In this document: in pieces, positions 6,029 through 63,392 of the stretch
Numbering within the stretch: position 1 is the first letter of the stretch
Layout: each line of letters begins with the position of its first letter
Assembly (NCBI GenBank): GCA_965205015.1
Contig: OZ242029.1
Location: forward strand, 5,248,001-5,312,000
Source: Candidatus Poribacteria bacterium
GTDB taxonomy: Bacteria > Poribacteria > WGA-4E > WGA-3G
Length of the DNA stretch: 64,000 bases
Direction of reading: 5' to 3'
Program-made: the position numbers and the translations under genes
Notes under the pieces: model-generated
The model's database searches: none
Told to the model about the DNA's origin: nothing
The model's input: the letters and a program-made list of their open reading frames with translations, nothing else

Positions 6029-6035
6029 TTTTATT

Positions 6036-6836: not shown

Positions 6837-6937
6837 TGGTTTGTATTTCCCTCCTTAATTCTTTTGGAGTAAGGGATTATATCGTATTTCCATTTCACTA
6901 CAAACATCTTTGGAAGTCACAGAATTTTAGAATCTCT

Positions 6938-7453: not shown

Positions 7454-7459
7454 TCGCTG

Positions 7460-11164: not shown

Positions 11165-11842
11165 ATGCAAATTCTATGTGAAGGCAATATTACTGAAAAA
11201 CTGTTTACACTCTATAATCAATTGCTCGCACAACACGGGAACCGTAAATGGTGGCCCGCAGACACTCCGTTTGAAGTGGCACTCGGTGCGATTCTAACAC
11301 AAGCGACTTCATGGCGCAACGTCGAAAAAGCGATGGACAATCTCAAAGATGCCGGGGTTTTTACCCCTGAGGAGATAGCATCTATCAGCCAATCCGCGTT
11401 GGAGCGACTCATCCGACCCTCACGCTACTTTCGGATGAAGGCGCAAAAAGTGCGGGCATTTGTAGATTATATCGCAGATCGTCCCATGCACGTGATGTTT
11501 ACGCAAGATGTCCCTAAGTTGCGTGAAGAACTGCTCTCCATCTACGGTGTCGGTCCCGAAACGGCGGATACAATAATACTCTACGCTGCTGGTAAACCGA
11601 GTTTTGTGGTTGATTCCTATACCTATAGACTCTTTTCGCGGTTGGGATGGGTTGCAGGGAGATATAACTATGACAAACTCCGTGCGCTGTTTATGGACAA
11701 CCTTCCTCACGATGTTGATCTGTTCAACGAATACCATGCGCTGATTGTTGGTCACGGCGCAAGGGTCTGCCACAAGAAGACACCGAACTGTCAGGAGTGT
11801 CGTTTGCAGGCATCGTGTGCATATTATCAATCATCTGAATAG
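11165..11842 (+). CDS. Endonuclease III-like HhH-GPD DNA glycosylase with Fe-S motif
   Basis: WWPADTPFEVALGAILTQ, LLSIYGVGPETAD, VVDSY, CHKKTPNCQECRLQASC. Confidence 0.85.
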   Translation: MQILCEGNITEKLFTLYNQLLAQHGNRKWWPADTPFEVALGAILTQATSWRNVEKAMDNLKDAGVFTPEEIASISQSALERLIRPSRYFRMKAQKVRAFVDYIADRPMHVMFTQDVPKLREELLSIYGVGPETADTIILYAAGKPSFVVDSYTYRLFSRLGWVAGRYNYDKLRALFMDNLPHDVDLFNEYHALIVGHGARVCHKKTPNCQECRLQASCAYYQSSE

Positions 11843-11860
11843 AAATTTTCTGTGTAGACG

Positions 11861-13879
11861 TTACTCGGTAGGTTGCTGAAGTTTTTCAAAGAAATCTGCT
11901 TCTTTCAAAATTGGGATATCCAGTTCTACGGCTTTGGTGTATTTGCTACCGGCACCTTCCCCAGCGATAAGGTAATCCGTCTTACGCGTTACGCTCGATG
12001 TAACCCTGCCACCGCGACGCTTAATCTCGTTCGATGCTTCGCCACGCGTCATACCCGCAAGACTCCCCGTGACAACGAATGTCTTTCCGCGAAAGAAGCC
12101 ATTTGCCACGAGGCGCGCTTCCGTGCGGTGAGAGGCTGCTGCTACGGTGAAACAGTGCAAGCCTGCCGCTCGTAGTTTATCAAGCAACGGTTTATTCTGT
12201 GAGAAGAATTTGAAAACGCTTTTCGCTATCTGTGGACCGATGCCTCTTACCGATTCAATCTCCTCTTGGGATGCCGTGCTGAGCGCATCTAAGGATGGGA
12301 ATTGTTCAATGAGCAGCTCCGCAACAGTCTCGCCGACATGAAGAATACCGAGTCCGAAAAGGAGTTTTTCTGCCGGGACCGCCTTGCTCTGTTCAATCTG
12401 GTAGACAAGGTTGCCTGCGGACGGGACACCCATCCGCTCCAGTTTGCTTAACGGTTTTACCTCCAGTGCATAAAGATCGGCAACGTCGCCGACCAGTTCT
12501 GTATCCACCAGTTGGTCAATAGTCGCAGGACCGAGACCTTCGATTTGGAGGGCATCGCGCGAGGCGTAATGGGCAATACGGCGTTTCAGTTGTGCGACGC
12601 ATGCCACATTCACGCACCGAACCGCAACTTCTTCCTCCGTGCGTTGGACGGGGGTACCGCATGCCGGACACCGCTCCGGAAATTCAAAAGGATCTTCGCG
12701 ATCAGTTTGGTCGGCTGTGAGCACCTCAACAACTTTAGGAATAACATCTCCTGCACGCTCAAGCACAATCCGATCGCCGATACGGATGTCTTTCGTTTGG
12801 ATCTCTTGCGCGTTGTGTAAGGTGGCGTTTGTAATTGTCGCGCCAGCGAGGATTACGGGTTTCAAGATTGCAACCGGTGTTAGGACACCCGTGCGTCCAA
12901 CCTGCACATCTATCTTTTCGATGGTTGTGATGGCTTGCTGCGCGTTGAACTTATAGGCGACTGCCCACCGCGGGTATTTGGAGGTTGTCCCAAGTTCATG
13001 CTGTTGGGAAAAATTGTTAACCTTTACGACGATTCCATCGGTCTCGTAACGGAGTTCATGGCGTTCTTCTACCCAGCGTTCGTAGTAGGCTTGAACGGCT
13101 TCAATCGATTGATGGTAACCAGTGTATGGATTACATTTGAGTCCCCAAGCCTTCATATTTTCGAGGGACTCTGTATGGGTCGTGAATTCGGTTCCCTCGG
13201 CGTAGTTGAGGGTGTACACGAAAATATCTAACGGACGGGATGCCGTTATGGAAGCGTCTAAGAGTCGCAGGGAGCCAGCGGCGGCGTTACGAGGGTTGGC
13301 AAACGGCAATTCGCCTTCTGTTTCCCGTTGGGTGTTAATGTCGTCGAGACAATCCTTGGGAAGGAAAACTTCACCGCGGACTTCTAACAGCGGCGGCACG
13401 GGTGTTTCCGTTTCAACAAGCCGCAATGGAACCGAACGGATGGTTCGTAGGTTGTCGGTTACATCTTCGCCGTACTCGCCGTCTCCGCGCGTGAGACCTT
13501 GTGTGAAGACACCGCTTTCGTAAATTAACGAAACCCCCAACCCGTCGATTTTGAGTTCTGTGACGTATTCGACGGGTGCCCCTTCTAACAACCTGTCAAT
13601 GCGTTCGGCGAATTCCCGCAGCTCGTTCTCGTCGTAACTGTTATTCAGACTCAGCATAGGGCTACGGTGTTGTAGACGGGTGCCTAATACAGCACCACCC
13701 CCAACCCGTTGCGTCGGCGAATCTGGCGGAATAGGTGCTTCAGTCGCTGCTTCGAGTGCCTCAAGTTTCCTCATGAGCGCGTCGAAATCCGCATCAGAAA
13801 TTTTTGGCAGGTTTTCGATATAGTATTTGCGCTCATGATAACGTATCAACGCTCTCAGTTCATCGATCTCTGTTCGCAT
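11861..13879 (-). CDS. ligA: NAD-dependent DNA ligase
   Basis: ELKIDG adenylation motif, TRGDG, NPRNAAAGSLR, Zn finger CPAC...C...C, C-terminal BRCT domain. Confidence 0.97.
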   Translation of the reverse strand: MRTEIDELRALIRYHERKYYIENLPKISDADFDALMRKLEALEAATEAPIPPDSPTQRVGGGAVLGTRLQHRSPMLSLNNSYDENELREFAERIDRLLEGAPVEYVTELKIDGLGVSLIYESGVFTQGLTRGDGEYGEDVTDNLRTIRSVPLRLVETETPVPPLLEVRGEVFLPKDCLDDINTQRETEGELPFANPRNAAAGSLRLLDASITASRPLDIFVYTLNYAEGTEFTTHTESLENMKAWGLKCNPYTGYHQSIEAVQAYYERWVEERHELRYETDGIVVKVNNFSQQHELGTTSKYPRWAVAYKFNAQQAITTIEKIDVQVGRTGVLTPVAILKPVILAGATITNATLHNAQEIQTKDIRIGDRIVLERAGDVIPKVVEVLTADQTDREDPFEFPERCPACGTPVQRTEEEVAVRCVNVACVAQLKRRIAHYASRDALQIEGLGPATIDQLVDTELVGDVADLYALEVKPLSKLERMGVPSAGNLVYQIEQSKAVPAEKLLFGLGILHVGETVAELLIEQFPSLDALSTASQEEIESVRGIGPQIAKSVFKFFSQNKPLLDKLRAAGLHCFTVAAASHRTEARLVANGFFRGKTFVVTGSLAGMTRGEASNEIKRRGGRVTSSVTRKTDYLIAGEGAGSKYTKAVELDIPILKEADFFEKLQQPTE

Positions 13880-13956
13880 AACACCTTATCCAGTTTTAGA
13901 GGGAGCCTCTGAAAATTTTTAGCAACCTGGACCGGTCGCAAATACATCTATTTGCG

Positions 13957-15387
13957 TCACTGTGTATGTGCTGATAAATCGCTTGCGATCGTTAAGCGTC
14001 TCTGACGTGTGAAGGTGCGTGGCCGCGTGAATCCTTCACCTGTCGGTCCCGCGATCGTCATCGCGAGGTAGCCTTCACCTTCTAATCCACAAGACGCGTA
14101 AGAGGGGGCGTTAATGACCGTAACGCTGCAGTCTATTGCCTTTGTGAACTGTGTGATGCGTTTGGTGTTGTTTGTGTGGAGCACGCCGGTGTGTCCACGT
14201 CCACCTTCTGCTCTGACGGCGCCTGCCAATGCCTCGTCGAAGTCGCGGCAACGAACGACGGGCAGAATCGGCATCAGGTATTCGTTAAGGACGAACCCAT
14301 GATCCGCTGGCACTTCAACAACGATCGCGACTGTCTGTGCAGGGGCTGTGATACCGGCGGCGTTTAAAATGGTCAGCGCATCTTTACCGATGTATTCCTT
14401 ATTCGATTCCTCTTTTTCCGTGACAACCGCCTCTAATGCCTGAAGTTGGCTTGCACCGAGGAGATGCCCGCCATTTTGTGTTAACTCCCGAACCGTTTCG
14501 TTTGCTACCGAATCGATAACGAAGAGTGCTTTTTCGCCGATACAGAGCAAATTGTTGTCAAAACTCGTGCCTGCGATGACATGTTTCGCTGCCTGCTGAA
14601 TATCCGCGGTTTCGTCAATAATCGCAGGCGGATTGCCAGGTCCAGCGGCGATCGTCTTTTTCCCACTTGAGAGGGCAGTCCGGACGACGGACGCACCACC
14701 CGTCGCAACGAGCATAGCGATCTCAGGATGCTCCATGATCTCCTTCGCTGTTCGTAGGCTGGCGTTTGCAACCGAGGTGAGCAGGTTGGCGGGACCCCCT
14801 GCCTTGACGATTGCTTCGTTGATAACGTGCATCGTTTCTTCAGTACAATCGCGTGCGTTTGGATGCGGGCTGAACACAACGGCGTTCCCTGCTGACAACA
14901 TTATAATCGCGTGGTTAATCACCGTTGATGTTGGATTCGTGGTAGGGGTAATCGAGTTAATAACGCCAAAAGGGACATATTCGATGAGAAGCGTTCCAGC
15001 ATCCCCCGATACCGCCTCGGAGTGCAGATCCTCCACCCCCGGTGAGAGTGTTACGGCTCCCTCATTCTTCATCACCTTATGGGCGGCGTTCCCCATATTT
15101 GTGTCTTGTACTGCCAAATCCGCGAGACGTTCAGCGTTGGCGAGCGATACCGCTTTGATCGCTTCGATGATCTCGCGTCTTTTCGCGAACCCAAGTTTGA
15201 CGAGTGCCGCTTGTGCTGTTTTTGCCGCTGCGATGGCCTCTGCTACTGTTCCAAAAACGCCGGCTCGCGAGGAGGAACCCGGCGCCGCGGACGTAACAGG
15301 CTGCGTCGCGACTGTTCCGTCTTGTTGGAGTGTCTTTAATACTTGGGATACAATCTCTTCAATCTGTTTTTCGTCAATTTGTGCCAT
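13957..15387 (-). CDS. BMC-associated CoA-acylating aldehyde dehydrogenase (EutE/PduP family)
   Basis: N-terminal encapsulation-like helix IEEIVSQVLKTL; PFGVI, PTTNP, GPGNPP, FDNNLLCIGEK, IAGPTGEG. Confidence 0.9.
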   Translation of the reverse strand: MAQIDEKQIEEIVSQVLKTLQQDGTVATQPVTSAAPGSSSRAGVFGTVAEAIAAAKTAQAALVKLGFAKRREIIEAIKAVSLANAERLADLAVQDTNMGNAAHKVMKNEGAVTLSPGVEDLHSEAVSGDAGTLLIEYVPFGVINSITPTTNPTSTVINHAIIMLSAGNAVVFSPHPNARDCTEETMHVINEAIVKAGGPANLLTSVANASLRTAKEIMEHPEIAMLVATGGASVVRTALSSGKKTIAAGPGNPPAIIDETADIQQAAKHVIAGTSFDNNLLCIGEKALFVIDSVANETVRELTQNGGHLLGASQLQALEAVVTEKEESNKEYIGKDALTILNAAGITAPAQTVAIVVEVPADHGFVLNEYLMPILPVVRCRDFDEALAGAVRAEGGRGHTGVLHTNNTKRITQFTKAIDCSVTVINAPSYASCGLEGEGYLAMTIAGPTGEGFTRPRTFTRQRRLTIASDLSAHTQ

Positions 15388-50862: not shown

Positions 50863-51909
50863 CATACGCTTGAGGTGGCTGCTGACCCGCAAAGCCTTTC
50901 TTTACTTCATCAGTTCAACGGTGTTTATGTTCAAGACAGCACCTGGATATCGCTCCCCGATGACCTCCATGAGATTTCCAAAGGTCCCCCGAAAAAGAAT
51001 CATCCGCAGAAAGCCGCTTTGAAACTTCATTTGCGCTTTGATGTGTTGACGGGAGGTTCCAAGACTTCCAACTCACCAATGGCATGGCTGCTGATAGCAC
51101 AACCGAAAAGGCAGCCGATCCCCTTCCACAGGGAAGTTTATACCTCGCAGACTTGGCATATTTTTCCCTCGATACGTTTGAGAAACTCACTGAGAACGGC
51201 ATCTACTGGGTTTCTCGCTTGAAAGCCAACTCGTATCTCGCTGATGAAAACGGCGAATACCTCCCTTTAGAGAAGATGCTCAAGGAGACCGAAGCAGAAA
51301 ACACCTTCATTCGCAAACGCATCCGTATCGGCAGAACAAAGCAACTTCCGGTGTATCTCATCGCCCAAAGACTTTCACAAGCAGAAGCGAGTCAACGCCG
51401 ACGCTCCATCCGATACCGTGCCAAACACAAAGCCCAAACCCCCTCAAAAACGCTCTTGCGCCTCGCGGGATACATACCAATATCAAAGCACATTGACTTA
51501 CCTCGAAACAGCTGGTCCGTCAGCGTCGGCATCCGATGGCAGATTGAGTTGATGTTTAAGGGATTCAAAAATAGCGGAAAACTGACTGTCTCCCGGAGTC
51601 AGAAACCCTATCGGATCCTCTGCGAAATCTATGCCAAACTCATTGCGATCCTGATTCAACACATCGTCATGTTAGCCGCAGGATACCGACACATACACCA
51701 CAGTTTCATCAAGACCGCAAAATACATTACCGGCTACGCGAGATTGCTAACGGTGAGTTTTCATCACTCAAAAACCCAACGCCTTGAAACCTTGAAGGAC
51801 ATAAAACGATCCTTTGAAAACGGCGGGGGTTTCCAGAGAAGCCCTGGAAAAAATACAACCCTTAGACGATTCCAAGAGGCAATGGAAAATCTCTAAATTG
51901 ACACTTATG
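50863..51909 (+). mobile_element. IS4-family element remnant: 5'-truncated, frameshifted DDE transposase
   Basis: VQDSTWI, KLHL, LADLAYF, VSRLK and RWQIELMFK split over frames (50875..51222, 51084..51896); right end TTGACACTTATG resembles an IS4-type TIR. Confidence 0.8.
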
Positions 51910-52427: not shown

Positions 52428-52455
52428 TGAACCTTTTGGCAATAATGTGTCCTCT
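52428..52455 (+). promoter_or_regulatory. ECF-sigma-type promoter, probably autoregulatory
   Basis: TGAACCTTTT-N14-CTCT, 30 nt before the ECF gene; same motif on the minus strand at 63365-63392. Confidence 0.55.
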
Positions 52456-52484
52456 ATGCCCGAATCCAAATCGGTTATTGCTTA

Positions 52485-53048
52485 ATGGAGAACGATATAG
52501 TAACAACAGGTTTAATTTGGCAGCTTCAATCGGGGGATGATAAACCTCTCAGTGAGTTGATGAAACACTACAATCCGCATATATGGCCGTTAATTCTGTC
52601 GGAATCTCGGAACTATCAAGATGCTGAGGATATACTCAGTAGAACCTGGGTTTCGGTTTGGGAGAATATCAACGGCTTGCGGGATGTAGGCAATTTCAGC
52701 GGATGGCTGCGGAAAATCGCTTATAACCAATGTAGGCGATATTACAACAACGCATACCATTCACAAGGCGAACGTCCTTACGAAGATGAGGCGTTGGCGT
52801 GGCATGTCAATAGCAGTACTGAGATTCTCCTTCGTGAAGAAGAATTGAAAGCAGATGCTATTGAAGCAGTGCTACATCTACCGAGCAAGCCTGGACATAC
52901 CCGAGAAGTTGCTATATTGTTTTATCTTCACGACATGCCGCTGAAGGAGATTGCGGAAGAACTTGAGTTGCCACTCGGCACAGTCAAGCGCAAACTTCAT
53001 GAGGCACGCGGATTTCTCCGTAAGGAGTTCTGCGTGGAGTCTGAGTGA
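52485..53048 (+). CDS. ECF RNA polymerase sigma factor
   Basis: DAEDI, FSGWLRKIAYNQC (region 2), EIAEELELPLGTVKRKLHEAR (region 4). Confidence 0.9.
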   Translation: MENDIVTTGLIWQLQSGDDKPLSELMKHYNPHIWPLILSESRNYQDAEDILSRTWVSVWENINGLRDVGNFSGWLRKIAYNQCRRYYNNAYHSQGERPYEDEALAWHVNSSTEILLREEELKADAIEAVLHLPSKPGHTREVAILFYLHDMPLKEIAEELELPLGTVKRKLHEARGFLRKEFCVESE

Positions 53049-53233
53049 AAGGACGATAACTTGGTTGGGTTGTGTTTTAGTTATACTTGGTGCTTTCGGC
53101 CAAGTAGCGTAATTGTTGTTTATGAGCTGCTTTTTCTGAAAGACCTTGCTTTAAAGTAAGAAAAAGTGACAGTCCATTTTCAACAATATATATTTCACAC
53201 TGAATCCCTTCAAGGGACAAAGAGGAGAAGTTT

Positions 53234-53503
53234 ATGTTAGTGTCTTGTCTTAGAAACAAAATGGTTACAAAATCTGTTGCAATGGTTCTTGTAGTAATGT
53301 TTTCGCTTGTTTTCTATACAGGCTCAACACCAGAGGCGGAGGCACAAGAAGTTTACGCAGAGGCGAATCAGGATGGCTGGAAAGTCGGTATCAAAGTTGA
53401 CTTGTTAAAACTCTACGATCGGATATTCGGTGACAGCAGTAGCAATAACAACAGTAGTTGTAGTTGTGGCTGTGGTAGCAGCAATAGTAGCTGTAGTTGC
53501 TAA
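53234..53503 (+). CDS. Secreted small peptide with Asn/Ser tract and Cys-rich tail (precursor 1)
   Basis: GAGGAG RBS; signal peptide ending AEA; C-terminus GDSSSNNNSSCSCGCGSSNSSCSC*. Confidence 0.8.
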   Translation: MLVSCLRNKMVTKSVAMVLVVMFSLVFYTGSTPEAEAQEVYAEANQDGWKVGIKVDLLKLYDRIFGDSSSNNNSSCSCGCGSSNSSCSC

Positions 53504-53722
53504 CCCTTTTCCTAGTGCTCTGTCCATCTTGAAATTGTAAATAAATCCGTTCGTAGTCTTGTGATTCATTGCACGTCACAAGGTACAATGCATTGTGCTA
53601 CTATGAACAGACCTCAATTTGAAAAATGGATAAAGCACTAAGTTACAAACCTATTTCCCCGTTTCGCTTCCACATATCCTGTGGTGGTGAAATGGGGCAT
53701 CGGCTCTAAAGGAGATTATAGC

Positions 53723-54670
53723 ATGAAGTCACGTGAATGGTTATCGCCACGCACTGTATCAATTATTGGTATTTTAGTGGTCCTTCTTATGATTGGCCTC
53801 TATTTCTACGTGCGACATGATGTACAAAAATTTGAAGCGAGTTTGCCAAAGATTTTACCAACAACACAATCTGTTAATAGGCTTGGCCACGGGCCATTGA
53901 CAGAGAATGTTATTCCTAAACTAGATGAGGTAGTTTTCGCTGAAAAACCTGTGCAAGCTGTCCCTGTGACAAGCGGTGAATTGATAGTAGTTTCCCAAAA
54001 TGAGGAATCTGTCGCGGGAGCAGAACCCGGGTGTAGCATGTCTGGGGATATGATGGACTCTAAACATGAAGAAGACGATGAACCAGAAGTTTACGCAGGA
54101 ATGACGAATGAAGAAGTACGAGAACTCATTGCTGAACTTCAGACATCTTATGATATCACGAATGCAGATGAGAAGTTTGACTTATTAGGAGAGGCACTCC
54201 TCGCAAAAATAGGGCCCGACCCGAGAATCCCGCGCGTGATTAGCAATTTTAAAGCTCTCCACGCACTTGATAAACAAGTAAAAAGGATGAATGCAGCAGG
54301 GAAAGACAATCAAGCGGAAATTGACGTTTTTCTCAATCAGTTACCGGCTGTTGTCGCAAGTGATTTAGTAGAACTCTCTATTGGCTTGCTTAGTCCAAGC
54401 GAAGAAGAGTCGGCTGCCCTGCGTAAACAGGTTAAACAAATCACATCATATGTGGATAATCTTACGCTTCTTCGCGAGACTACTCCCTTGATTAAGGATG
54501 CTATTTCCACAGGAGATATTACCCCCGAAGAAGGGAAAGTGTTTCTAGAATCCGTGTCTGGTATAAACGTTACCGTGCACGCCTTGCCTCGCTCGGGAAC
54601 CCCGGTAGACGACACCATAAGGCCCCTGGAAACATCCGAACCTGCGGTAAAAGAGATTCCTGAATACTAG
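53723..54670 (+). CDS. Membrane-anchored acidic extracytoplasmic protein
   Basis: AGGAG RBS, N-terminal TM helix IIGILVVLLMIGLYFYV, acidic linker, helical C-terminal domain. Confidence 0.7.
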   Translation: MKSREWLSPRTVSIIGILVVLLMIGLYFYVRHDVQKFEASLPKILPTTQSVNRLGHGPLTENVIPKLDEVVFAEKPVQAVPVTSGELIVVSQNEESVAGAEPGCSMSGDMMDSKHEEDDEPEVYAGMTNEEVRELIAELQTSYDITNADEKFDLLGEALLAKIGPDPRIPRVISNFKALHALDKQVKRMNAAGKDNQAEIDVFLNQLPAVVASDLVELSIGLLSPSEEESAALRKQVKQITSYVDNLTLLRETTPLIKDAISTGDITPEEGKVFLESVSGINVTVHALPRSGTPVDDTIRPLETSEPAVKEIPEY

Positions 54671-54696
54671 TAGTCTGTCACGTCTAAACTGAGAGG

Positions 54697-54760
54697 CAGT
54701 TCGTAGTAGCGCAATTCATTGCGCTATGGATGAGGCGATGAATCGCCTCACTACGAACTG
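54697..54760. repeat. REP/MITE-like palindromic element
   Basis: CAGTTCGTAGT...ACTACGAACTG termini with internal hairpins AGCGCAATTCATTGCGCT and TGAGGCGATGAATCGCCTCA. Confidence 0.65.
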
Positions 54761-54774
54761 GGGTTACCCTTCAT

Positions 54775-54963
54775 TTGAAAGTTGACAAAGCACTAGACGC
54801 AGGAGATATATCCTCTGAAGAAGCCGAATCATTCTTAGAACGCCTATCGGGTCTAAACATTACAGGGGCAGGACCTGACCAGACACAAAGAAGGGAAGAA
54901 TCTGCAACACCCGATGTAATTAAACCAAACGTCTCTGAGATTCCTGAATACGAGACTTTTTGA
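54775..54963 (+). pseudogene. C-terminal remnant paralogous to 53723..54670
   Basis: ALDAGDISSEEAESFLERLSGLNIT...EIPEY vs AISTGDITPEEGKVFLESVSGINVT...EIPEY. Confidence 0.7.
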
Positions 54964-54978
54964 GATGAGGATTTACTT

Positions 54979-55392
54979 ATGAGAATCCTTCAGGTACTAA
55001 AACTCACAAGAATCTGTTTAGTGCTTTTTAGCATCAACTTGCCACTCGTCGCAACAACACTCCCTCAAAAAATGAGTGAATCAGATGTTAAAGTATTTTT
55101 GGATATGGGCTTCCAAGGGTTTGAGGAACTTACACACAGCCAGGGGTTCCAAGATTGGCATTATGCCGAAGCCAAAATTCCTATTAGATTGGCGAACTGT
55201 GCCGACTGTGCCCCTTATATTACTATCTTTCGCGAAAGATCCACAAATGGCAGACCTACCGTAGGCGCCAGGGGGTCATGGTCGACTTTATGGAAAATGC
55301 CAAAAATCGTGATAGGTTATGCCAAAATCCTATCTCAACGAGGCAGGATACTTCTACACAGTGGGGTCCAAAAACTTTTTTCGTGGTGGTAA
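54979..55392 (+). CDS. Putative secreted hypothetical protein (possibly truncated)
   Basis: GAGG RBS, signal-like N-terminus, CxxC (CADC). Confidence 0.45.
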   Translation: MRILQVLKLTRICLVLFSINLPLVATTLPQKMSESDVKVFLDMGFQGFEELTHSQGFQDWHYAEAKIPIRLANCADCAPYITIFRERSTNGRPTVGARGSWSTLWKMPKIVIGYAKILSQRGRILLHSGVQKLFSWW

Positions 55393-55558
55393 TTTTTTGT
55401 AAAATCAAAAACATTCCTCCAGGGGTTATAGTAAAGCTCGAAAATATATGAGCATAAGAACTCTGAAAAAACCTTCCTCCCCACTGGCGAGGTGAGGAAA
55501 CTTCACTACCCCGAGTGTATAGATAATTATGTGCTTCATTATAAAAGAGCGAAAATCA

Positions 55559-55865
55559 ATGTTTTTATATTCGCTCAGAAAAAGAAAGATTGCGATACCT
55601 ATGGTAATTCTTCTTATAGCAATTTTCCTATTAAGCTTATATACAATCTGGACAGACTCAATATCAGAAGCAGCAGCCAATGGCAATAACGATAATCTCT
55701 TTATTCGCTCCCCTCTGCCGAGATAGACTTGAGAGATGTTTTAGTTATCGAGGCGTGATTCTTTGGGTAATGGATAGAATTACAGACGATAACTCCAATA
55801 ACAACAGTTCCGGTAACAGTGAATGCGACTGTGGGTGTACCGACAGCGGTAGTTGTTTTTGTTAA
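55559..55865 (+). pseudogene. Second Cys-tail peptide (precursor 2), broken by two apparent single-base deletions
   Basis: Signal peptide MFLYSLRKRK...SEAAA in one frame, EIDLRDVLVI in the next, GVILWVMDRITDDNSNNNSSGNSECDCGCTDSGSCFC* in the third. Confidence 0.7.
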
Positions 55866-55886
55866 ATTCGTAAATGGTGCTAGTCT

Positions 55887-58238
55887 ATGGTTAAAAGGCT
55901 TACAAGTAGCCTTCTCATTATCAGTATCTTGTTCCTCGCCTTCTGGCTGCGTACTCAGGGTACGAGCCGTATTCCCGATGGACAGTTTACCGGATACGAT
56001 CCCTATCTCTATTATTGGCAGGCACAGATCATCTCCGAATACGGGTATCTACCCGAACGCGATATGCACCGCTGGCTACCCCTCGGTAGAGATTTAAGAC
56101 AAACCCTAAATCTCTATTCTTATGTCCTTGCTTACACCCATAAAGCAATTTCTCTGTGCTATCCAAACGTCTCACTATATCAGATTTCTGTTTATGCACC
56201 ACCTATCTGTTTTATTACCGGGCTCGGTGCCCTTTGCCTCTTCCTGTACCACACTTATGGATGTCTCTTTTCAAGTTGTGTTGGCGTGTTGCTCGCAACT
56301 TTTCCTGGCACTATCGGGCGCAGTTCTGCTGGTTTTGGAGACAGGGACTCTTGGTGTTTTCTACTTGCTGTTCTTGCCATCACAACCTATCTTGTTTCTT
56401 TACAAGCGCGCAACCCACGCAAACGAATGTTATGGACGCTTGTCAGTGGCGGCATCGTTTTTCTCGGGGGCATCAGCTGGGAGGCTTTCGGATTTTTTGT
56501 TGGAATGATAGTTGCTATGGAACTCTGGAAGTTCTGCACCACTGTGAGGGAACAGCATATAAAAGAATACGCCTTGTGGGTGTTTATGTTTGTGCCAGGG
56601 CTCTATCTTGCCAGTCCCGCGTACCGAAACGGCTATGGGTTCGCCACACACATTACTGCCTTGATGCTCTTCCCACCGCTTGTTATCTTCGTGCTCCGCA
56701 GTGTTAGATTTCTGCTTCTTGATTTCTCAGAACAGTTCCGGCCGTATGCACGCCATCTTGCATGGTTCTTAACGCTTAGCAGCATCGCAATAGGCATCTG
56801 TTACATTGTTATAAATCTTGACAACTTCGCCCACACTGCCTATCAGTTTCAAGAAAACCGCTTGATGCGAAGCATCAGCGAACTGGCTAGCCCGCTTTTT
56901 GGTTATTGGACAGAACGTTATGGGAGTTTCTTTATTTTAGGCAGCCTTGGACTTATTGTTGAAAGCCTCCGGGTATGGAAATGGAAAGCCATCCCTTTGG
57001 GGGTATCCCTTATTCTCTTTTTTGGAACGACCTTCTTTCGATGGCCCATCAGCCAGTGGATTGGTACTGATATGTGCAATACACTCTTTTTTGCTTCGCT
57101 TGCACTCGTTCCTACCGGACTTGGTATTGCAAGTCTCCGAAAAGGAAATTCCGCCGCAGAATTCATAACGCTCCTCGCTATCCTGTGGGCACTTTTGTGG
57201 ATCGGCCTTGCCCGCAGTGGAAAACGGTTTGACTTCTTTATCGGTATCCCTCTTGCTTGCGGCACAGCCTTTCTCTTATGGTACTGTCCCATACAGTTTA
57301 TACAAAAACTTAAGGCAGCCAAAAGATTGCCAGAGTATTTCAGGCAACCTTGGATTGTCGCGTGCGTAACAATCGCTATATTCATTCCTATGCTCTTTTG
57401 GACACCACTCGGAGGCCACGCCGCGCGCGCCCTGAAAGGAGCAAAGGACGTTCGAAGACCTATTCCAGGACGAGGGGAGATGCTAGAGACGTTTCAGTGG
57501 ATGAAAGCTACACTTCCACCAAACACCATTATGGCTGCCCACTGGAGTTACGGCAGTCAACTCAATATTTTCGGCGATGTTAAAACTGTCATTGACCAGG
57601 ATCATTATATACCACACTGGATACACCTCTATTACCGACACGTCTTCTGTGCTCAGTCCGAGCGCGAGGCGCTCTCTTTTTTGAAAACTCATGGTGCAAC
57701 ACACCTTATGTTAACACAGGAAGAGGTTATTAAGTTACCTCGGAGCCTTTCCTTTATAGGTAGTGACAAAAACGCAGATCGCCGCTTCGGATTCACCAAA
57801 CTGCATCGCGACAGAAAAACTTCAACTGAAACGCTTACAAGACTAATGCCGCGACGCGGTACCCCTTTGGAATCCGTTGAGGTTGTTAATATCGCGCCTG
57901 AAAAGCGATTCGTGACTGTCCAGTTCAAAACACAAGACACGGTGTCCAAAGAGGTCGTCTGGAACGCTAATAAACCCTCAGCAATAAAACTCGGAACAAG
58001 TGGTGTGGTTCTCTACTTTGATTTTGAAGGCAAACCTTACATCGGGTACTATATCCCATCAATTGGGTGGAACAGTTTCGCTGTTAAACTGTTCATACGT
58101 GGCGAGCATAGTACAGCCTTTATACCTGTTTATCCTGTTAATAAAGATAGCCTTGCAAAACTTAAAGTGTGGAGAATTTACTATCCACCTGATATAAATC
58201 CAGATCCTAAATACCTCGCAACTGATCCTGAACGGTGA
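55887..58238 (+). CDS. STT3/AglB/PglB-like oligosaccharyltransferase (GT-C fold)
   Basis: Many TM helices; GYDPY, GFGDRD (DxD), SISE (TIXE/SVSE), KRF, then soluble domain AHWSYGSQL...VIDQ (WWDYG variant). Confidence 0.82.
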   Translation: MVKRLTSSLLIISILFLAFWLRTQGTSRIPDGQFTGYDPYLYYWQAQIISEYGYLPERDMHRWLPLGRDLRQTLNLYSYVLAYTHKAISLCYPNVSLYQISVYAPPICFITGLGALCLFLYHTYGCLFSSCVGVLLATFPGTIGRSSAGFGDRDSWCFLLAVLAITTYLVSLQARNPRKRMLWTLVSGGIVFLGGISWEAFGFFVGMIVAMELWKFCTTVREQHIKEYALWVFMFVPGLYLASPAYRNGYGFATHITALMLFPPLVIFVLRSVRFLLLDFSEQFRPYARHLAWFLTLSSIAIGICYIVINLDNFAHTAYQFQENRLMRSISELASPLFGYWTERYGSFFILGSLGLIVESLRVWKWKAIPLGVSLILFFGTTFFRWPISQWIGTDMCNTLFFASLALVPTGLGIASLRKGNSAAEFITLLAILWALLWIGLARSGKRFDFFIGIPLACGTAFLLWYCPIQFIQKLKAAKRLPEYFRQPWIVACVTIAIFIPMLFWTPLGGHAARALKGAKDVRRPIPGRGEMLETFQWMKATLPPNTIMAAHWSYGSQLNIFGDVKTVIDQDHYIPHWIHLYYRHVFCAQSEREALSFLKTHGATHLMLTQEEVIKLPRSLSFIGSDKNADRRFGFTKLHRDRKTSTETLTRLMPRRGTPLESVEVVNIAPEKRFVTVQFKTQDTVSKEVVWNANKPSAIKLGTSGVVLYFDFEGKPYIGYYIPSIGWNSFAVKLFIRGEHSTAFIPVYPVNKDSLAKLKVWRIYYPPDINPDPKYLATDPER

Positions 58239-58294
58239 TACCGAATTCGTAAGGATAGATTTCTATATTTACCCATGTAACTTAATACAAGCAC

Positions 58295-58855
58295 ATGATA
58301 GCAAACGCAATAACGCTCTTAAGGCTTCTTTTAACCTTTGTTGTAATTATATTACTCCATTTAAACTACTATATCAGTATAGGACTAATGGCAATGATCG
58401 GTGGTATTTTCACACTTGATGGTGTTGACGGTATCATTGCCCGTAAATGCAACCAAGCAACAAAGTTCGGAGCAATCTTTGATACTGTAGCAGATAGAAT
58501 CATTGAGAATACTTTCTGGATTTACTTTGCAGTGAACGGACTAATCCCTTTATGGATGCCGATCACTGTCCTAACTCGTGGATTTTTGATAGACAGTTTG
58601 CAGCACTATACTAAGCTATCAAAAAGCGACTGGGCACATGCCCTTACTCGCTCCCGCACAAGCCGTGCACTTTATGGTATAGCCAAAATGAGTACCTTTC
58701 TTTTGCTTGCAAGTGTCTGCGTTTTCAAACCTGAAAATTCCACTATAGAACTAATAAGTGTAATACTTCCTACTGCTACTATCGGTTTTTGTCTCATTCG
58801 GGGGGTGCCACTATTCATAGAAGCTTGCAAAACTTTCACTGTTAACCTGAATTAA
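58295..58855 (+). CDS. CDP-alcohol phosphatidyltransferase (PgsA-like)
   Basis: ANAITLLR; DGVDGIIARKCNQATKFGAIFDTVAD matches DxxDGxxAR...GxxxDxxxD. Confidence 0.9.
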   Translation: MIANAITLLRLLLTFVVIILLHLNYYISIGLMAMIGGIFTLDGVDGIIARKCNQATKFGAIFDTVADRIIENTFWIYFAVNGLIPLWMPITVLTRGFLIDSLQHYTKLSKSDWAHALTRSRTSRALYGIAKMSTFLLLASVCVFKPENSTIELISVILPTATIGFCLIRGVPLFIEACKTFTVNLN

Positions 58856-58897
58856 CGTAGAATCCACGATAAAAAATGTTAAAAAAGGAGAAATTTA

Positions 58898-59932
58898 TTG
58901 AAAAGTTGCATAGCACTCTTAATAAGTATTCTGCTTGTATTCCCTTTCCCGTCCCTCACTTATGGAGACACATCCAAGCAGTCGCGGCCCGACAACCTCG
59001 TACCTATTGGTATAATGGGTGACCATGGACACAAAAAAAGTGAGATAATGCTCTTATACCGGTTCATGGCAATAAACATGCAGGGTTTACAATCTGACAC
59101 AACTCCGCTTGAGAAGGAGGATGTTCTCAAAGATTTTATGATAGCACCTGTACAGATGAGCATGCAGATGCACATGCTCGAGACAATGTTCGCACCGCAC
59201 AACCGTATCACTCTCATGGCAATGGCAAACTACCAACATAATGCTATGCAAATGGAAGGTGCGCACCAGCATGCACACGGTGGACATGAACACCCCGTAG
59301 TTCCTCATGAAATGTCAAGTGCAGGCATTGGTGATGTAAAATTAGAGGGCGTCCTCACACTTTGGGAAATGCCTCACCTGACACTCCTTGCAAACGTCGG
59401 TGTTTCATTCCCAACCGATTCCATTACGCAAAAAGGAGATAATGAGGAACTTCTACCTTATTCTATGCAACTTGGCAATGGTTCTTTTGAAGCTCGCCCT
59501 GGCATTACACTCTTTGGGTTTCACAACTTTTGGTCCTATGGTGGACAACTTCGAGGCACATTTCCATTGAATACCAATGCGGGAGGGTGGCGGTACGGAA
59601 AAACCTTTGATGTTACCGCATGGGGGGCGCGCCGTATCAACAATTGGATCAGCCTTGGTAGTAGGTTGCTCTTGTCAGCACGAGGAAACATCACCGGCAG
59701 CCACCCCGATTTGAATCCATATATGAGTCCGAGTCACCGTCCTGACTATAGTGGTGCTACCTTGCTTAATTTCGCTGTTTCTGGCAACGTCATCGTTCCA
59801 ACAGGTACCTTCATAGGGCAAAGACTCGCCATTGAGTTTCAGATACCCCTTTATCAGAGTTTCACTGGAATTCAACTCAAAACAACATGGCAGCTCACTG
59901 CCAGTTGGCAATACGCCTTCAAAGTTTTGTAA
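58898..59932 (+). CDS. Outer-membrane beta-barrel transporter-like protein with His/Met-rich loops
   Basis: Signal peptide, PIGIMGDHGHKK, QMSMQMHM, HQHAHGGHEH, GIGD, MQLGNG, aromatic terminal strand WQYAF. Confidence 0.7.
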   Translation: MKSCIALLISILLVFPFPSLTYGDTSKQSRPDNLVPIGIMGDHGHKKSEIMLLYRFMAINMQGLQSDTTPLEKEDVLKDFMIAPVQMSMQMHMLETMFAPHNRITLMAMANYQHNAMQMEGAHQHAHGGHEHPVVPHEMSSAGIGDVKLEGVLTLWEMPHLTLLANVGVSFPTDSITQKGDNEELLPYSMQLGNGSFEARPGITLFGFHNFWSYGGQLRGTFPLNTNAGGWRYGKTFDVTAWGARRINNWISLGSRLLLSARGNITGSHPDLNPYMSPSHRPDYSGATLLNFAVSGNVIVPTGTFIGQRLAIEFQIPLYQSFTGIQLKTTWQLTASWQYAFKVL

Positions 59933-59963
59933 GAACATCCGAACCCTTTTACAAGGAAACATC

Positions 59964-60464
59964 ATGGCCCGAAAATGTGAAAAAAAACTCGCGATCACCT
60001 GCGGCCTCAGTGTCATACTGCTCCTCTCGTTATTGTTGATACATACGCTTACTGCAGCACGACATGGTAGGACAGACATGGACAACACACCGCTAAGCGA
60101 ACTGGACAAATCTCCTGATAAACGTATACAGACACCCGCGGCCTTACAAATTCCCATCGGTTTTCAAGACTCGGATTTTTATCGCACGATCGTTGACAAT
60201 AACCTCTTCCGACCCCTCGGCTGGAGACCTCCACGCACACGAACTGCTTATCGTTTGCTTGGAACGATCCTCCCCACAGAGAAAAGAACAGAGGCGCAAG
60301 CGATCCTCCAATCCACTACGGGTGACAAAATACACATTGTTACATTTGGTGATACACTTGACTCGGAGACCACTGTCACCGACATCCAACTGAAGCAAGT
60401 AACACTAGAAGCCTCCGGACAGCAGAAAATCCTTCATCTTAACGCTGTTCCTTGGATAAAATGA
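59964..60464 (+). CDS. GspC/PilP-like (type II secretion C-like) membrane-anchored protein
   Basis: N-terminal TM helix, NLFRPLG, YRLLGTI...AIL...GDTL...VTDIQLKQVTL...LHL pattern. Confidence 0.6.
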   Translation: MARKCEKKLAITCGLSVILLLSLLLIHTLTAARHGRTDMDNTPLSELDKSPDKRIQTPAALQIPIGFQDSDFYRTIVDNNLFRPLGWRPPRTRTAYRLLGTILPTEKRTEAQAILQSTTGDKIHIVTFGDTLDSETTVTDIQLKQVTLEASGQQKILHLNAVPWIK

Positions 60465-60479
60465 ACGGAGACCACTTCA

Positions 60480-61061
60480 TTGCAGGATTTTGACGAAAAA
60501 CACCTTATCACACGCGCACAACACGGCGACACCGATGCTTTTAATCCACTAGTGCGAGAATACCAACCCCGTATCTACACCTATATCGCAAGATACATCA
60601 AAAACCATGACACCACAAAGGACTTATGCCAAGAAACATGGCTGAAGGCGTTTCGCGCTATTAACACCTTCCGCGGCGACTCCGCCTTCTCTTCCTGGAT
60701 CTATCGCATCGCCGAAAACGTCTGTATCGATTTCCTCCGAAAACAGAAAACAACCACCACCATTGATTCCCTCCACGCTATAGACGAACGTCGGCTTCTT
60801 TGTGCACACCCCGATCCGTGCGATTTGCTCCAACAGCAAGAACTCCGGCAATACCTTCATGAGGCAATCGCAACACTCACACCACCCCGCAAACGCGTGT
60901 TTCTCTTATACTACATCGAAGAGCTCTCTATCAAGGCCATCGCTATACGCATCGGACGCAGCGAAGGCACCGTAAAAACACACCTCCGCAACGCACGCCT
61001 ACAACTCCAAGAACATCTCACGCCTTACGTGAAAAATGAAAACATTCCTTGGCTGCAGTGA
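60480..61061 (+). CDS. ECF RNA polymerase sigma factor
   Basis: AQHGDTDAF, DLCQETWLKA, FSSWIYRIAENVCID, IAIRIGRSEGTVKTHLRNAR. Confidence 0.92.
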   Translation: MQDFDEKHLITRAQHGDTDAFNPLVREYQPRIYTYIARYIKNHDTTKDLCQETWLKAFRAINTFRGDSAFSSWIYRIAENVCIDFLRKQKTTTTIDSLHAIDERRLLCAHPDPCDLLQQQELRQYLHEAIATLTPPRKRVFLLYYIEELSIKAIAIRIGRSEGTVKTHLRNARLQLQEHLTPYVKNENIPWLQ

Positions 61062-61090
61062 TGTCCTCGGCACTTATTCTATGTTATGTT

Positions 61091-61181
61091 TAGGACTTAC
61101 GCAATTCCCTTGTAGGCGCGGTTTGAAACCGCGCCTACCGCGGAGTAATAGGTGTAATTCCGTGATTTTGCGTAAGTCTTA
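61091..61181. repeat. MITE-like element with GGACTTACGCA termini enclosing a GTAG REP hairpin
   Basis: TAGGACTTACGCAA...GTAGGCGCGGTTTGAAACCGCGCCTAC...TTGCGTAAGTCTTA; a shorter relative lies at 50769-50807. Confidence 0.65.
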
Positions 61182-61245
61182 ATATTATTGCAGTCGTAAG
61201 CACCAGAACGGACAAACGGAGTAACTGTCGGGATTTCGGATGGTT

Positions 61246-63084
61246 TTATTTTAAAAGACGAAGAGTTTCCTCCACCTTGGTTTTTAGGGCGTTATCGTTT
61301 TCCTGTTTCGCGAGTTTTAAGGCAGTTTGAAGATCTGTTTTTGCTTCCAAAACATTGCCTATCTCAACCTTTGCACGTCCGCGTTTATAGTAAGGCGTGG
61401 CGTAGTTGGGTTTTAGATCGACAACTGTATCATAGTCTTCAATAGCTCCCTTGTTGTTTCCTACATTTGATTTCGCATCCCCTCTGATTTCATAGGCTTC
61501 TGCAAGGTCTGGATCAAGACTAAGTGCTGTATTACAGTCTTCAATGGCGCCTTGAGCATCGTTTATATCTAACTTCGCGAAGGCTCGCTTACTATAGACG
61601 TAGGCCGTGAAAGGAACATTCTTTGAATTAAGATGGATTGCTTCATCATAATCTTTGATGGCATCTATAACATCACTTAAATTAGACTTTGCAAGTCCCC
61701 GATTGAGATAGGCAATGGCAAGAATAGTCTGGTTTGGTTTTAGGCGGATAGCTTCATTGTAATCTTCAATGGCACTTTTAATGCTCCCTAAGTTGGACTT
61801 TGCAAGTCCCCGATTGAGATAGGCAGTGGCAAGAATAGTCTGGTTTGGTTTTAGATGGATGGTTTCACTATAATCTTTGATGGCACCTTTACGATCACCT
61901 AAAGCCAACTTTACATCCGCTCTTTTGAAATATATAATGGCAAGAATAGTCTGGTTTGGTTTTAGACGGATGGCTTCATCATAGTCTGCAATCGCCGTTC
62001 CATAGTTTGCTATATCCAACCTTGCATTCCCGCGGTTAAAGTAGGCTTCAACATTTTCCGCGTCAAGATTAATGGATATATTATAGTCTGTGATGGCACC
62101 TTTATAATCGCCTAATTTCTTTTTTGTGGCACCTCGATTGAGATAGACAGCTGCATAGTCTAATCCTGAGCGAATGGCAGTATCATAGTCTGCAACCGCC
62201 CCTTTATAGTTGCCTAAATTATGCTTCGCAATTGCCCTATCAGCATAGATGTCTACAAAGTCTGGGCTTAAGTGAATGGCTTTATTATATGCTTCAATTG
62301 CTCCCTCAAAATCCTTCATTTTTTTCTTAGTATCGCCTTGATTGGCATAGGCATAGGCACGTATTGGCAGTTCCTCTTTCCATTTTTCGAGAGGTTTCTC
62401 TTGGGTAGGTAGGTCATTAAGCAGGGACCGGATATGGTTTGATGGAATAGCGTACCCTGTACGATTTGTACGGTGACCTTGTGTGGAAATACCTACTATT
62501 TCTCCCTTATCGTTCAGAATAGGCCCGCCACTATACCCCGGACTAAGGGAAATTTTCAAGCGGAAAAAATTAGGAGTGATTCGATTTACCCTGCCTGTTG
62601 AGGTTATCCCTTGTGAGTTCCTAGCGTTACCGATAGCGATAACCACATCGCCAAGTTCTACTGCGCTACTATCCCCAAGTGGGAGGACTCGTCCTCCTTT
62701 ACCTGCAACCTTTAAAACAACTATATCGCGCTTTGGATTGCTTGCCATAACTCCTTTGATAGTATATTGCGTCGGTTGATTAACCAAGTTTGCGGTCCAA
62801 CTGTAAGACTTTCCATAAATGCCAGCGATACCATGGATGCTAGTTACCATCAAATCATGCCTGATAAGAAACCCACTACCGTGGGTACTCGTACCGTCGG
62901 CCCCGTGACGAGTCAACCGAATCGTGGAGGTTTTTCCGATTTGAGCAGCTTGCTGCTCAAGATTTGCGTGTATGGTTGGTTTTGGAATTTGTTCGGTTTC
63001 CTGCTTGGTACTCAAAGCACAGCAAAGAAAAAAGCAAAGTGAAAGGCATTTCACCAATATCGATCCTTTTTTCGCAAATTGCAT
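61246..63084 (-). CDS. Secreted trypsin-like serine protease with C-terminal TPR array
   Basis: Signal peptide; GSGF, TSIH, DIVVL, PGYSGGP (His/Asp/Ser triad); about ten YxNRG...AIxDY repeats. Confidence 0.88.
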   Translation of the reverse strand: MQFAKKGSILVKCLSLCFFLCCALSTKQETEQIPKPTIHANLEQQAAQIGKTSTIRLTRHGADGTSTHGSGFLIRHDLMVTSIHGIAGIYGKSYSWTANLVNQPTQYTIKGVMASNPKRDIVVLKVAGKGGRVLPLGDSSAVELGDVVIAIGNARNSQGITSTGRVNRITPNFFRLKISLSPGYSGGPILNDKGEIVGISTQGHRTNRTGYAIPSNHIRSLLNDLPTQEKPLEKWKEELPIRAYAYANQGDTKKKMKDFEGAIEAYNKAIHLSPDFVDIYADRAIAKHNLGNYKGAVADYDTAIRSGLDYAAVYLNRGATKKKLGDYKGAITDYNISINLDAENVEAYFNRGNARLDIANYGTAIADYDEAIRLKPNQTILAIIYFKRADVKLALGDRKGAIKDYSETIHLKPNQTILATAYLNRGLAKSNLGSIKSAIEDYNEAIRLKPNQTILAIAYLNRGLAKSNLSDVIDAIKDYDEAIHLNSKNVPFTAYVYSKRAFAKLDINDAQGAIEDCNTALSLDPDLAEAYEIRGDAKSNVGNNKGAIEDYDTVVDLKPNYATPYYKRGRAKVEIGNVLEAKTDLQTALKLAKQENDNALKTKVEETLRLLK

Positions 63085-63364
63085 CTAAATCTCTCCTTTC
63101 AGTGTGAGCTCAAATAGTGAATTGGTTCCTCTTTGCCAATACTTTCGCGAAAAAATAGTTGAATAAATAGGACAAGTATCTTAAAGTTATGGATGGGGAA
63201 AAACTATAACTTTGAAAGGAGACTTGCCCATATCGGAGATTCTAACACTTTTTGATGATATTTTTCTTCCATAAATCGCTGAACACTTGGCAACGATTGG
63301 GGCAGTCCATTAACTACCTTTTCAAAACGATACTTCATAATTTGACGAAAGTATTGTTTTGTAA

Positions 63365-63392
63365 AGAGCGTGGAATTTCGTAAAAAGGTTCA
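63365..63392 (-). promoter_or_regulatory. ECF-sigma-type promoter upstream of the protease-TPR gene
   Basis: Minus strand TGAACCTTTTTACGAAATTCCACGCTCT has the same spacing as the 52428 motif. Confidence 0.45.

Follow-up and report, generated by a model that had tools for sequence, protein, structure and literature searches.

We examined a gene island in a 64,000-nucleotide stretch of a Candidatus Poribacteria genome (contig OZ242029.1, positions 5,248,001 to 5,312,000; hereafter the window, from whose first letter positions are counted), in which one gene encodes what appears to be a divergent membrane transferase of the STT3 family. A preliminary description of the island, made from the sequence alone, had proposed that secreted Cys-tailed peptides are modified there by a dedicated STT3-like oligosaccharyltransferase. 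The ORF listing bore out the gene run it named: eleven co-directional open reading frames (ORFs) on the forward strand, plus a convergent gene for a trypsin-like protease with TPR repeats. Between two genes for extracytoplasmic function (ECF) sigma factors, the run encodes an exported 89-residue peptide (peptide 1; 53234..53503, an intact ORF with signal and Cys tail), a single-pass anchored protein with one N-terminal hydrophobic segment (53723..54670, 315 residues as called by the source, the frame being open from 53681), a 62-residue remnant of a second anchored-protein gene (54775..54963), a 137-residue ORF with an N-terminal hydrophobic segment (54979..55392), a second peptide gene in two frames (peptide 2), the multi-pass STT3-like enzyme (783 residues, 55887..58238), an enzyme of the CDP-alcohol phosphatidyltransferase family (186 residues, 58295..58855), a His/Met-rich outer-membrane barrel and a GspC-like protein.

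STT3, AglB and PglB share a GT-C fold of 13 membrane helices followed by a periplasmic domain, and transfer a lipid-linked glycan to the Asn of N-x-S/T. For the 783-residue protein, hydropathy predicted 10-13 hydrophobic segments and then a soluble C-terminal domain. It matched the archaeal model TIGR04154 at E 4e-16, with 58.5 bits where the cut-off is 450, and PF02516 was passed by 7 of 10 paralog loci (30.7-61.6 bits, cut-off 24.5). A profile of 81 family members found STT3A (6ftj, E 4e-10), yeast Stt3 (6c26, 8e-10) and STT3B (6s7t, 3e-7), and no PglB or AglB chain at E ≤ 0.01. On the basis of the TIGR04154 match, the family profile and the paralogs passing PF02516, we regard the protein as what looks to be a true but divergent STT3 relative.

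The enzyme had 781 relatives at E ≤ 0.001. Among the best 120, every named one belonged to Candidatus Poribacteria and 45 carried a precomputed PF02516 assignment; the closest (P0002-P0004) were 76-78% identical. The relatives' DNA was collected by a pattern scan over 185,579 species genomes, which returned 268 stretches encoding relatives of the enzyme; among the best 80 of these, 77 bore the label Poribacteria and 3 that of 'uncultured bacterium'. Because the scan used patterns specific to the family, the Poribacteria-only range holds within that search. These best 80 stretches and their paralogs, from ~45 genomes, gave 99 non-duplicate loci (L055, L060, L061, L101 and L125 were dropped as duplicates), whose ORFs were called, with a simple procedure of our own for small genes, and clustered by BLASTP. 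The 94 loci with an intact enzyme of at least 600 residues provide the denominators given below, and neighbours were counted as co-directional genes from seven upstream to four downstream of the enzyme.

Each of five complete Poribacteria genomes carries 2-6 full-length copies of the enzyme gene in addition to fragments, and the window's contig holds at least one further copy (P0008, 68% identical). Broken and tandem copies were also seen: in L007 (7932-11609) a pair of transposases (HTH_32, DDE_3) has inserted into a paralog and split it, L006 and L008 hold frameshifted or truncated copies, G005 several fragments with stops, L074 two convergent STT3-like genes (5962-8382 and 11847-14243), and L004 a gene at 7899-10034 in tandem with a fragment at 11184-11390.

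The profile alignment overlaid the family blocks D38, R-D-x-x-R-W, G-D-R-D and x-W-x-Y-G...D-x-D on the STT3A blocks E-F-D-P-Y, D-D-R-A-W-Y-P-L-G-R, G-S-Y-D-N-E and S-W-W-D-Y-G...V-D-N-N. Invariant in all 81 sequences were D38, D59, R62, W63, D152, R153, D154, W198, E332, W553, G556 and D570. Among them, D38 aligned with the Asp of E-F-D-P-Y, the acidic residue of the first external loop (EL1), and D152-R153-D154 with D-N-E, the D-x-D/E metal motif; in the family, the EL1 pair often lacks its first acidic member. The invariant E332, in S-I-S-E, we take to be the counterpart of the Glu in external loop 5 (EL5), whose motif is presumably the one named SVSE/TIXE; this equivalence was judged by eye, the profile alignment not covering that stretch. 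At the position of WWDYG, the window's enzyme reads H-W-S-Y-G (residues 552-556). Over 142 sequences the WWD equivalent reads [N99/H18/I8..]-W-[D46/S34/G31/E10/N10..], with Y, H or F in fourth place and then G; about 30 five-residue variants occur over the 94 loci, and only the W and the G are invariant.

According to a review of these enzymes (PMC7203096), the first external-loop Asp (D47 in yeast, D56 in PglB) binds both the metal and the acceptor Asn, the D-x-D/E motif binds metal, and the WWD and DK/MXXI motifs recognise Ser/Thr in the sequon's +2 position. Set against this, the family appears to have kept the catalytic core and to have lost the +2-reading WWD motif; with WWD changed, a canonical sequon probably does not serve as the signal. 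The one place where WWDYG survives literally is a separate ~915-residue paralog (L053, L054; S-W-E-Y-G in L052), which may be the phylum's 'ordinary' oligosaccharyltransferase. In L052 and L054 this paralog is followed by a 350-400-residue GT2 protein with membrane helices.

Upstream of the enzyme, exported and anchored proteins are frequent. At 54 of the 74 loci with at least 4 kb of upstream DNA, the gene at position -1 encodes a protein with an N-terminal hydrophobic segment, and 153 of the 218 products of the three upstream genes are exported or anchored, versus 89 of 326 control ORFs (from twenty 20-kb regions of the same five complete genomes). A filter for low-complexity tails (exported ORFs of 50-260 residues, at least 75% G/S/N/D/C/E/T in the last 16) retrieved 32 ORFs in 29 of the 94 loci, 32 on the enzyme strand and none opposite, 29 of them upstream, as against a single ORF in 450 kb of control DNA counted on both strands; a Cys-tail filter likewise gave 31 ORFs in 29 loci versus one in the control. 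The arrangement of the enzyme with exported neighbours exceeds chance. The synteny anticipated in the preliminary description therefore exists in a general form, as co-directional tailed exported proteins at 29 of 94 loci, whereas its exact C-x-C-G-C tail is limited to the window and one other locus, L093, with a looser form in L001.

When tail types were mapped on a FastTree phylogeny of the 94 enzymes, tail type and WWD-equivalent motif appeared to change together from clade to clade. Enzymes of an N-W-S-Y-G clade are accompanied by proteins with G-G-C-[DE]-[ST]-G-G(-C) near the C-terminus (nine motifs, all co-directional, 2-37 residues from the end; the two occurrences in controls lie in short stop-to-stop frames of 53 and 93 residues). 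In an I-W-D-Y-G / T-W-E-Y-G clade, which has the barrel and a PMT_2 enzyme, seven ORFs have G-[GS]-C-G-C-[GS] and a single further residue at the C-terminus, an ending with no occurrence in the 450-kb control, while other clades have G-N-D or E-N-D repeat tails, or proteins of 133-173 residues with 15-18 Cys. Six orthologs from the N-W-S-Y-G clade are only 26-37% identical, and invariance among them is confined to two columns of the signal anchor and the C, G, C and G of the tail. A Csp-type copper-storage identity was considered for the Cys-rich neighbours and set aside, no Pfam family having been matched.

In the window, peptide 1 starts with an N-terminal hydrophobic signal and an A-x-A site and ends in C-S-C-G-C-G-S-S-N-S-S-C-S-C, a tail of five Cys with C-x-C and C-x6-C spacing. 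It had no homolog but itself among 5.8 billion protein clusters, and a single weak full-length match in the five genomes, the L001 peptide (E 0.06). Its tail aligned with that of L093:8851-9249, in another barrel-bearing cassette, with 8 of 14 aligned residues identical (pairwise E 9e-5), among them each of the five Cys, the two Gly and the Asn at the centre. A pilin-like or anti-sigma role for peptide 1 was discarded: it has no class-III signal and, by eye, only ~9 cytoplasmic residues.

Of the two secreted Cys-tailed peptides originally described, the second turned out to be frameshifted. Its signal-peptide part (frame 2, from the ATG at 55559 to the stop at 55726) and its Cys-tail part (frame 0, open over 55635..55865, with the tail C-D-C-G-C-T-D-S-G-S-C-F-C) are offset by +1. 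Logan contigs of three runs, which stem from a single study and no more than two samples (perhaps the window's own source), span 53100-56100 with zero differences and zero gaps relative to the window; because all three carry the same break, the frame change lies in the reads and is no slip of one assembly. The signal part is 44% identical to that of the L001 peptide. L001 is the closest related locus, its enzyme being 68% identical to the window's, and its peptide gene (5677-5932) has an in-frame TAA directly after the signal peptide, with the Cys-tail part open behind it. Of the sub-family's three peptide genes, window peptide 2 and that of L001 are thus broken at the same point, for which decay is the one cause that we can suggest.

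Over 312 residues, the anchored protein shares 33% identity with L001:6628-7620 (E 9e-39), and only 3 other clusters are related to it, at 45-47% identity. The preliminary description had recognised the remnant downstream as that of a partner gene, and it is indeed 39% identical to the C-terminus of the anchored protein (residues 271-329). Given a peptide 1 without relatives and an anchored protein at 45-47% where the enzyme is at 76-78%, the cassette neighbours evolve much faster than the enzyme. The 137-residue ORF was a singleton in a clustering of 95 loci and, like the peptides, the anchored protein and the barrel, matched no Pfam or NCBIfam family. The peptide 1 gene (53332-53360) and the anchored-protein gene (54070-54098) have in common a 29-nt direct repeat, 79% identical.

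Directly downstream of the enzyme lies the CDP-alcohol transferase. Its family assignment is clear (PF01066, E 3.3e-19, 70.2 bits, cut-off 22), and what we take to be the signature of the family, D-x2-D-G-x2-A-R-x8-G-x3-D-x3-D, is readable in the translation; against the pgsA model it scored 67 bits (cut-off 109), and it reached the cut-off of no equivalog model. Such genes occur at 12 of the 94 loci, versus 24 with a GT2 gene (22 within the neighbour count, 24 anywhere in the locus), usually directly downstream of the enzyme, and the two never occur together. The best solved relatives of the GT2 protein are Dol-P-mannose synthase (5mlz, E 1.7e-15, full length), then ArnC and the GtrB-like sll0501, and it is on this account of the polyprenyl-phosphate sugar synthase type. 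The statement that no glycan-synthesis genes are present is thus true of the window, but 24 sister cassettes fill the CDP-alcohol transferase slot with a Dol-P-mannose-synthase-like GT2. The expected recurrence of the other neighbours was seen as well, with the barrel at 11 loci (9 directly upstream of the enzyme) and the GspC-like gene at 21; further recurrent neighbours were WD40 proteins (22 loci), methyltransferases (15), ECF sigmas (14), sigma-54 activators (13), MacB/FtsX-type permeases (10) and a PMT_2 GT-C enzyme (4).

The constant element of the cassette is the enzyme, and around it stand a lipid-carrier enzyme, exported or anchored proteins, envelope parts and a private regulator. 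We tentatively read the island as a cassette whose exported proteins are modified in the periplasm by its own enzyme, at a non-canonical site, acceptor recognition having diversified along with the tails, and we would give this a little less than an even chance. Equally tentative is the view that the island is one copy of a many-copy cassette, seen in this analysis in Poribacteria alone, with a re-tooled membrane transferase of the STT3 family at its core. The adjacent small exported proteins are likely candidates for the enzyme's targets.

In such a cassette, the local ECF sigma would switch the genes on, and peptide 1, with its seemingly flexible tail, and the anchored protein would reach the periplasm by their Sec-type signals. 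At the cytoplasmic face, the CDP-alcohol-transferase-family enzyme would load a lipid phosphate carrier, as the Dol-P-mannose-synthase-like GT2 would in sister cassettes. The STT3-like enzyme, keeping its metal- and acceptor-holding acidic residues, would then transfer the head group to one of the tail's residues; the central Asn would be the likeliest choice, with Ser or Cys as possible alternatives. The His/Met-rich barrel and the GspC-like protein could serve outer-membrane passage or metal supply; ECF control, export by the barrel and any processing step are parts of the scheme that we infer. For the window's copy, the likeliest target would be the central Asn of C-x-C-G-C-G-x-x-N-x-x-C-x-C, a motif drawn from two sequences, since the residues that hold the Asn amide in STT3 are invariant and the Asn is shared with L093. 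A bolder form of the idea, which we consider quite unlikely, is that each paralog reads its own tail motif (C-x-C-G-C-G-x-x-N-x-x-C-x-C, G-G-C-D-S-G-G-C, G-G-C-G-C-G-G or G-N-D repeats) and not N-x-S/T, and that some, like the window's, use a lipid donor made by the CDP-alcohol transferase and attach a group that is no classical glycan.

A number of points weigh against the proposal that the cassette modifies its own exported proteins. The 94 loci are phylogenetically related, orthologous cassettes and hence non-independent, and the binomial p of 5e-4 for low-complexity tails, like any p-value from the tail filters, is indicative only, because the filters were set after viewing examples. Under these filters, only 29-41 loci show a tail or a Cys-rich small protein. 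The original designation of the enzyme as an STT3-like oligosaccharyltransferase holds as to homology by profile and the retained acidic catalytic residues, but the WWDYG block is changed and the window's enzyme had no PF02516 match even at E ≤ 10. Genomes with an enzyme 76-78% identical to the window's either lack peptide 1 or have a form that escapes detection, and the breaks in peptide 2 and the L001 peptide fit a decay of the supposed substrates while the enzyme remains intact. The N-x-S sequon, noted in both peptides in the preliminary description, did not hold up as the signal beside the altered WWD: N-x-S/T is not enriched, since 11 of 31 tails have it within their last 30 residues versus 8.1 in composition-preserving shuffles. 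Moreover, no single acceptor residue fits all cassettes, because several tail types hold no Asn. As for the donor, the head groups that a CDP-alcohol transferase could make are not glycosyl donors in the STT3 mechanism, and we know of no GT-C enzyme that uses a CDP-alcohol transferase product as donor.

Some of the same observations would suit a different acceptor. Periplasmic single-sugar systems such as ArnC/ArnT, GtrB/GtrV, CsbB/YfhO and Ppm1/Pmt pair a polyprenyl-phosphate GT2 with a GT-C transferase, a pairing typical of single-sugar transfer onto envelope glycans. The STT3-like enzymes might, in the manner of ArnT, GtrV or YfhO with a GT2-made lipid-phosphate sugar, decorate a non-protein component of the envelope (lipid A or the lipopolysaccharide core, a polysaccharide, peptidoglycan), the small exported neighbours being envelope or signalling components. 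We hold this to be unlikely, though deserving of real weight. The reader of the peptide's +2 Ser/Thr is gone, with little beyond the W and G of WWDYG constant among its many variants, and the GT2 that adjoins the GT-C enzyme in 24 of the 94 loci resembles Dol-P-mannose synthase and ArnC; ECF control would suit envelope-stress remodelling, and the presence of a methyltransferase (15 loci) or a PMT_2 enzyme (4 loci) nearby points to glycan tailoring. An envelope acceptor, however, leaves unexplained why tails are conserved in otherwise fast-evolving neighbours, why tail type tracks enzyme clade, and why 2-6 diversified copies come each with exported proteins of their own, and the residues that hold an acceptor Asn (presumably EL1 Asp and EL5 Glu) are invariant. 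The likeness to ArnC/ArnT-type systems is also incomplete: the GT-C partner in Poribacteria belongs to the STT3 family and not to ArnT, PMT or YfhO, no GtrA-type flippase was recognised in Pfam scans of the loci, and the window has a CDP-alcohol transferase in place of the GT2.

The barrel invites yet another explanation. It is encoded at 58898..59932 (344 residues); its His/Met-rich character, already pointed out in the preliminary description, is real, and the His/Met blocks are invariant in 10 relatives. The protein itself had no Pfam match; it is linked distantly to PF13557 by transitivity only, through the 12 of 20 sampled relatives that match this family at E ≤ 0.1, and it differs from PF13557 (Phenol_MetA_deg / COG4313-type) channels by the invariant blocks and by NosL-fused relatives. 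With a profile of ten barrels, 2653 representative clusters were retrieved at E ≤ 0.001, and 906 of these reached E ≤ 1e-30; two of the sampled relatives (P0145, P0160) are fused to an N-terminal NosL copper-chaperone domain, and two of those sampled, from Emcibacter and Kangiellaceae, are called 'transporter' by their sources. The barrel appears to be a widespread type of outer-membrane channel, with a hint of copper, that has been recruited into some Poribacteria STT3 cassettes. That the whole island is a metal module, probably for copper, in which the Cys-tailed peptides bind, the barrel conducts and the ECF sigmas respond while the enzyme is accessory or unrelated, strikes us as distinctly improbable. 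It would account for the His/Met blocks, the NosL fusions (2 of 20), the number and spacing of the five tail Cys, the His-rich linkers in anchored proteins of sister cassettes and the Cys-rich small proteins in 7 of 11 barrel-bearing cassettes; yet the enzyme is the constant element and just 11 of its 94 loci have the barrel, many tails (G-N-D, E-N-D repeats) hold no Cys at all, the barrel family with its 2653 clusters is elsewhere not tied to STT3, and Pfam scans of the loci contained no CopA, CusF or multicopper oxidase.

The window's copy of the cassette is partly decayed, with its frameshifted peptide 2, its anchored-protein remnant and, at the upstream border, a truncated IS4-family transposase (51084..51896, matching model positions 170-332 of 332), but that it is a decaying, non-functional cassette altogether, as these features, the multi-copy palindromic repeat inside the island and the broken paralogs common elsewhere (L006, L007, L008, G005 fragments) might suggest, is highly improbable when the window retains, unbroken, the enzyme, CDP-alcohol transferase, barrel, GspC-like gene, the two sigmas, peptide 1 and the anchored protein, and when the enzyme keeps every family-invariant residue.

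How a cassette that modifies its own exported proteins would compare with known systems can be stated in a few points. With STT3, AglB and PglB (GT66) the enzyme has in common the Asp of EL1, the D-x-D block, the soluble domain's W..G...D-x-D block and, as judged by eye, probably the Glu of EL5; it differs from them in that Poribacteria have 2-6 diversified copies per genome versus one, and in standing beside small exported proteins and a single lipid-carrier enzyme, without a pgl/agl glycan-assembly locus. Glycocins such as sublancin and glycocin F are S- or O-glycosylated Cys peptides made with a leader peptide, a soluble cytoplasmic GT2 and nucleotide sugars. Here too, small Cys-bearing peptides are encoded beside a dedicated glycosyltransferase, whereas the peptide of the window carries a Sec signal, and the active site of its enzyme is predicted to face the periplasm; Pfam and NCBIfam scans of the island found no genes for a glycocin leader, cytoplasmic GT2 or peptidase-domain ABC exporter. 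The haloarchaeal archaeosortase A neighbourhood, with its AglB-type TIGR04154 protein and archaetidylserine synthase (NF038086), is weakly matched by the window's adjacent genes (E 4e-16 and 1.5e-3), but the window lacks a sortase and a PGF-CTERM-type tail with membrane helix; as both matches are far below cut-offs, this likeness may reflect merely shared superfamilies.

A literature search at listing level found no publication on STT3-family cassettes of Poribacteria. STT3, PglB and AglB stand in textbooks for a single conserved acceptor rule, N-x-S/T, and in bacteria are known mainly from Campylobacter-type pgl loci. Here, one bacterial phylum has several diversified STT3-like copies per genome, in each of which the motif that reads the sequon is altered and beside each of which a candidate substrate is encoded. 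If the bolder form of the idea given above is true, it would constitute a periplasmic pathway for ribosomally encoded modified peptides, with a new acceptor and possibly a new donor chemistry for GT66. If the pairing of enzyme and tail holds, the cassettes would offer natural experiments on the evolution of acceptor specificity in the STT3 family, new enzyme/tag pairs for glyco-engineering and a first hint at the surface decoration of sponge symbionts.

Downstream of the barrel, the GspC-like single-pass protein (59964..60464, 166 residues from an internal ATG, the frame being open from 59832) matched PF11356 weakly (E about 3e-4 to 4.9e-4, 21.1 bits, below the cut-off of 27), as did 17 of the 21 members of its family at E ≤ 0.1 (best 2.1e-6). 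No secretin or other gene of a type II secretion system appeared in Pfam scans of the loci, and the resemblance to GspC is limited to the HR domain. PDB sequence searches with the barrel, the GspC-like profile and the CDP-alcohol transferase returned nothing meaningful. The convergent protease (61246..63084, reverse strand; Trypsin_2, E 5e-20, and TPR) had been considered a possible part of the pathway; it formed a cluster of its own, none of the other 93 loci having a relative, and is probably not part of the cassette.

Beyond the island's upstream border there are also housekeeping genes, and G+C falls from ~0.47-0.54 to 0.41-0.45 in the island's first part. No tRNA genes or Rfam families were found in or near the island. 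A scan for sigma-70 promoters and terminators was uninformative (27 sites versus 20.1 +/- 4.6 expected), and an ECF-like site upstream of peptide 2 (G-G-A-A-A-C...T-A-T-A) was rejected as evidence of ECF control, being a single match equalled in 31 of 100 shuffles. Between the anchored-protein gene and the remnant lies a palindromic element (54692-54796, arms 54697-54722 and 54735-54760), of which many other contigs of the same runs carry copies, as seen from a jump in depth and many loose ends; it looks like a REP-like (repetitive extragenic palindromic) or MITE-like (miniature inverted-repeat transposable element) repeat.

Both sigma factors consist of sigma-70 regions 2 and 4 only, as is expected of the ECF type. 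The first (52485..53048, 187 residues; TIGR02937, E 1.8e-22, 79.8 bits; Sigma70_r2 and r4_2) falls in the ECF cluster seen at 14 of the 94 loci, and the second (60480..61061, 193 residues; TIGR02937, E 4e-35, 120.9 bits; cut-off 42.9 for both) has copies 57-64% identical beside paralogs in L007, L008, L009 and L052. ECF sigmas therefore do recur, as first supposed, although other cassettes (13 of 94) have sigma-54 activators instead. Finally, proteins of 910-990 residues adjoin STT3-like genes in L044, L048, L050 and L042 (for example L048 2895-5861). Where inspected, they have an N-terminal ECF-sigma-like part and then a membrane segment near residue 220, and the enzyme beside them is a short form of ~670 residues in L044, L048 and L050 and a 792-residue copy in L042.

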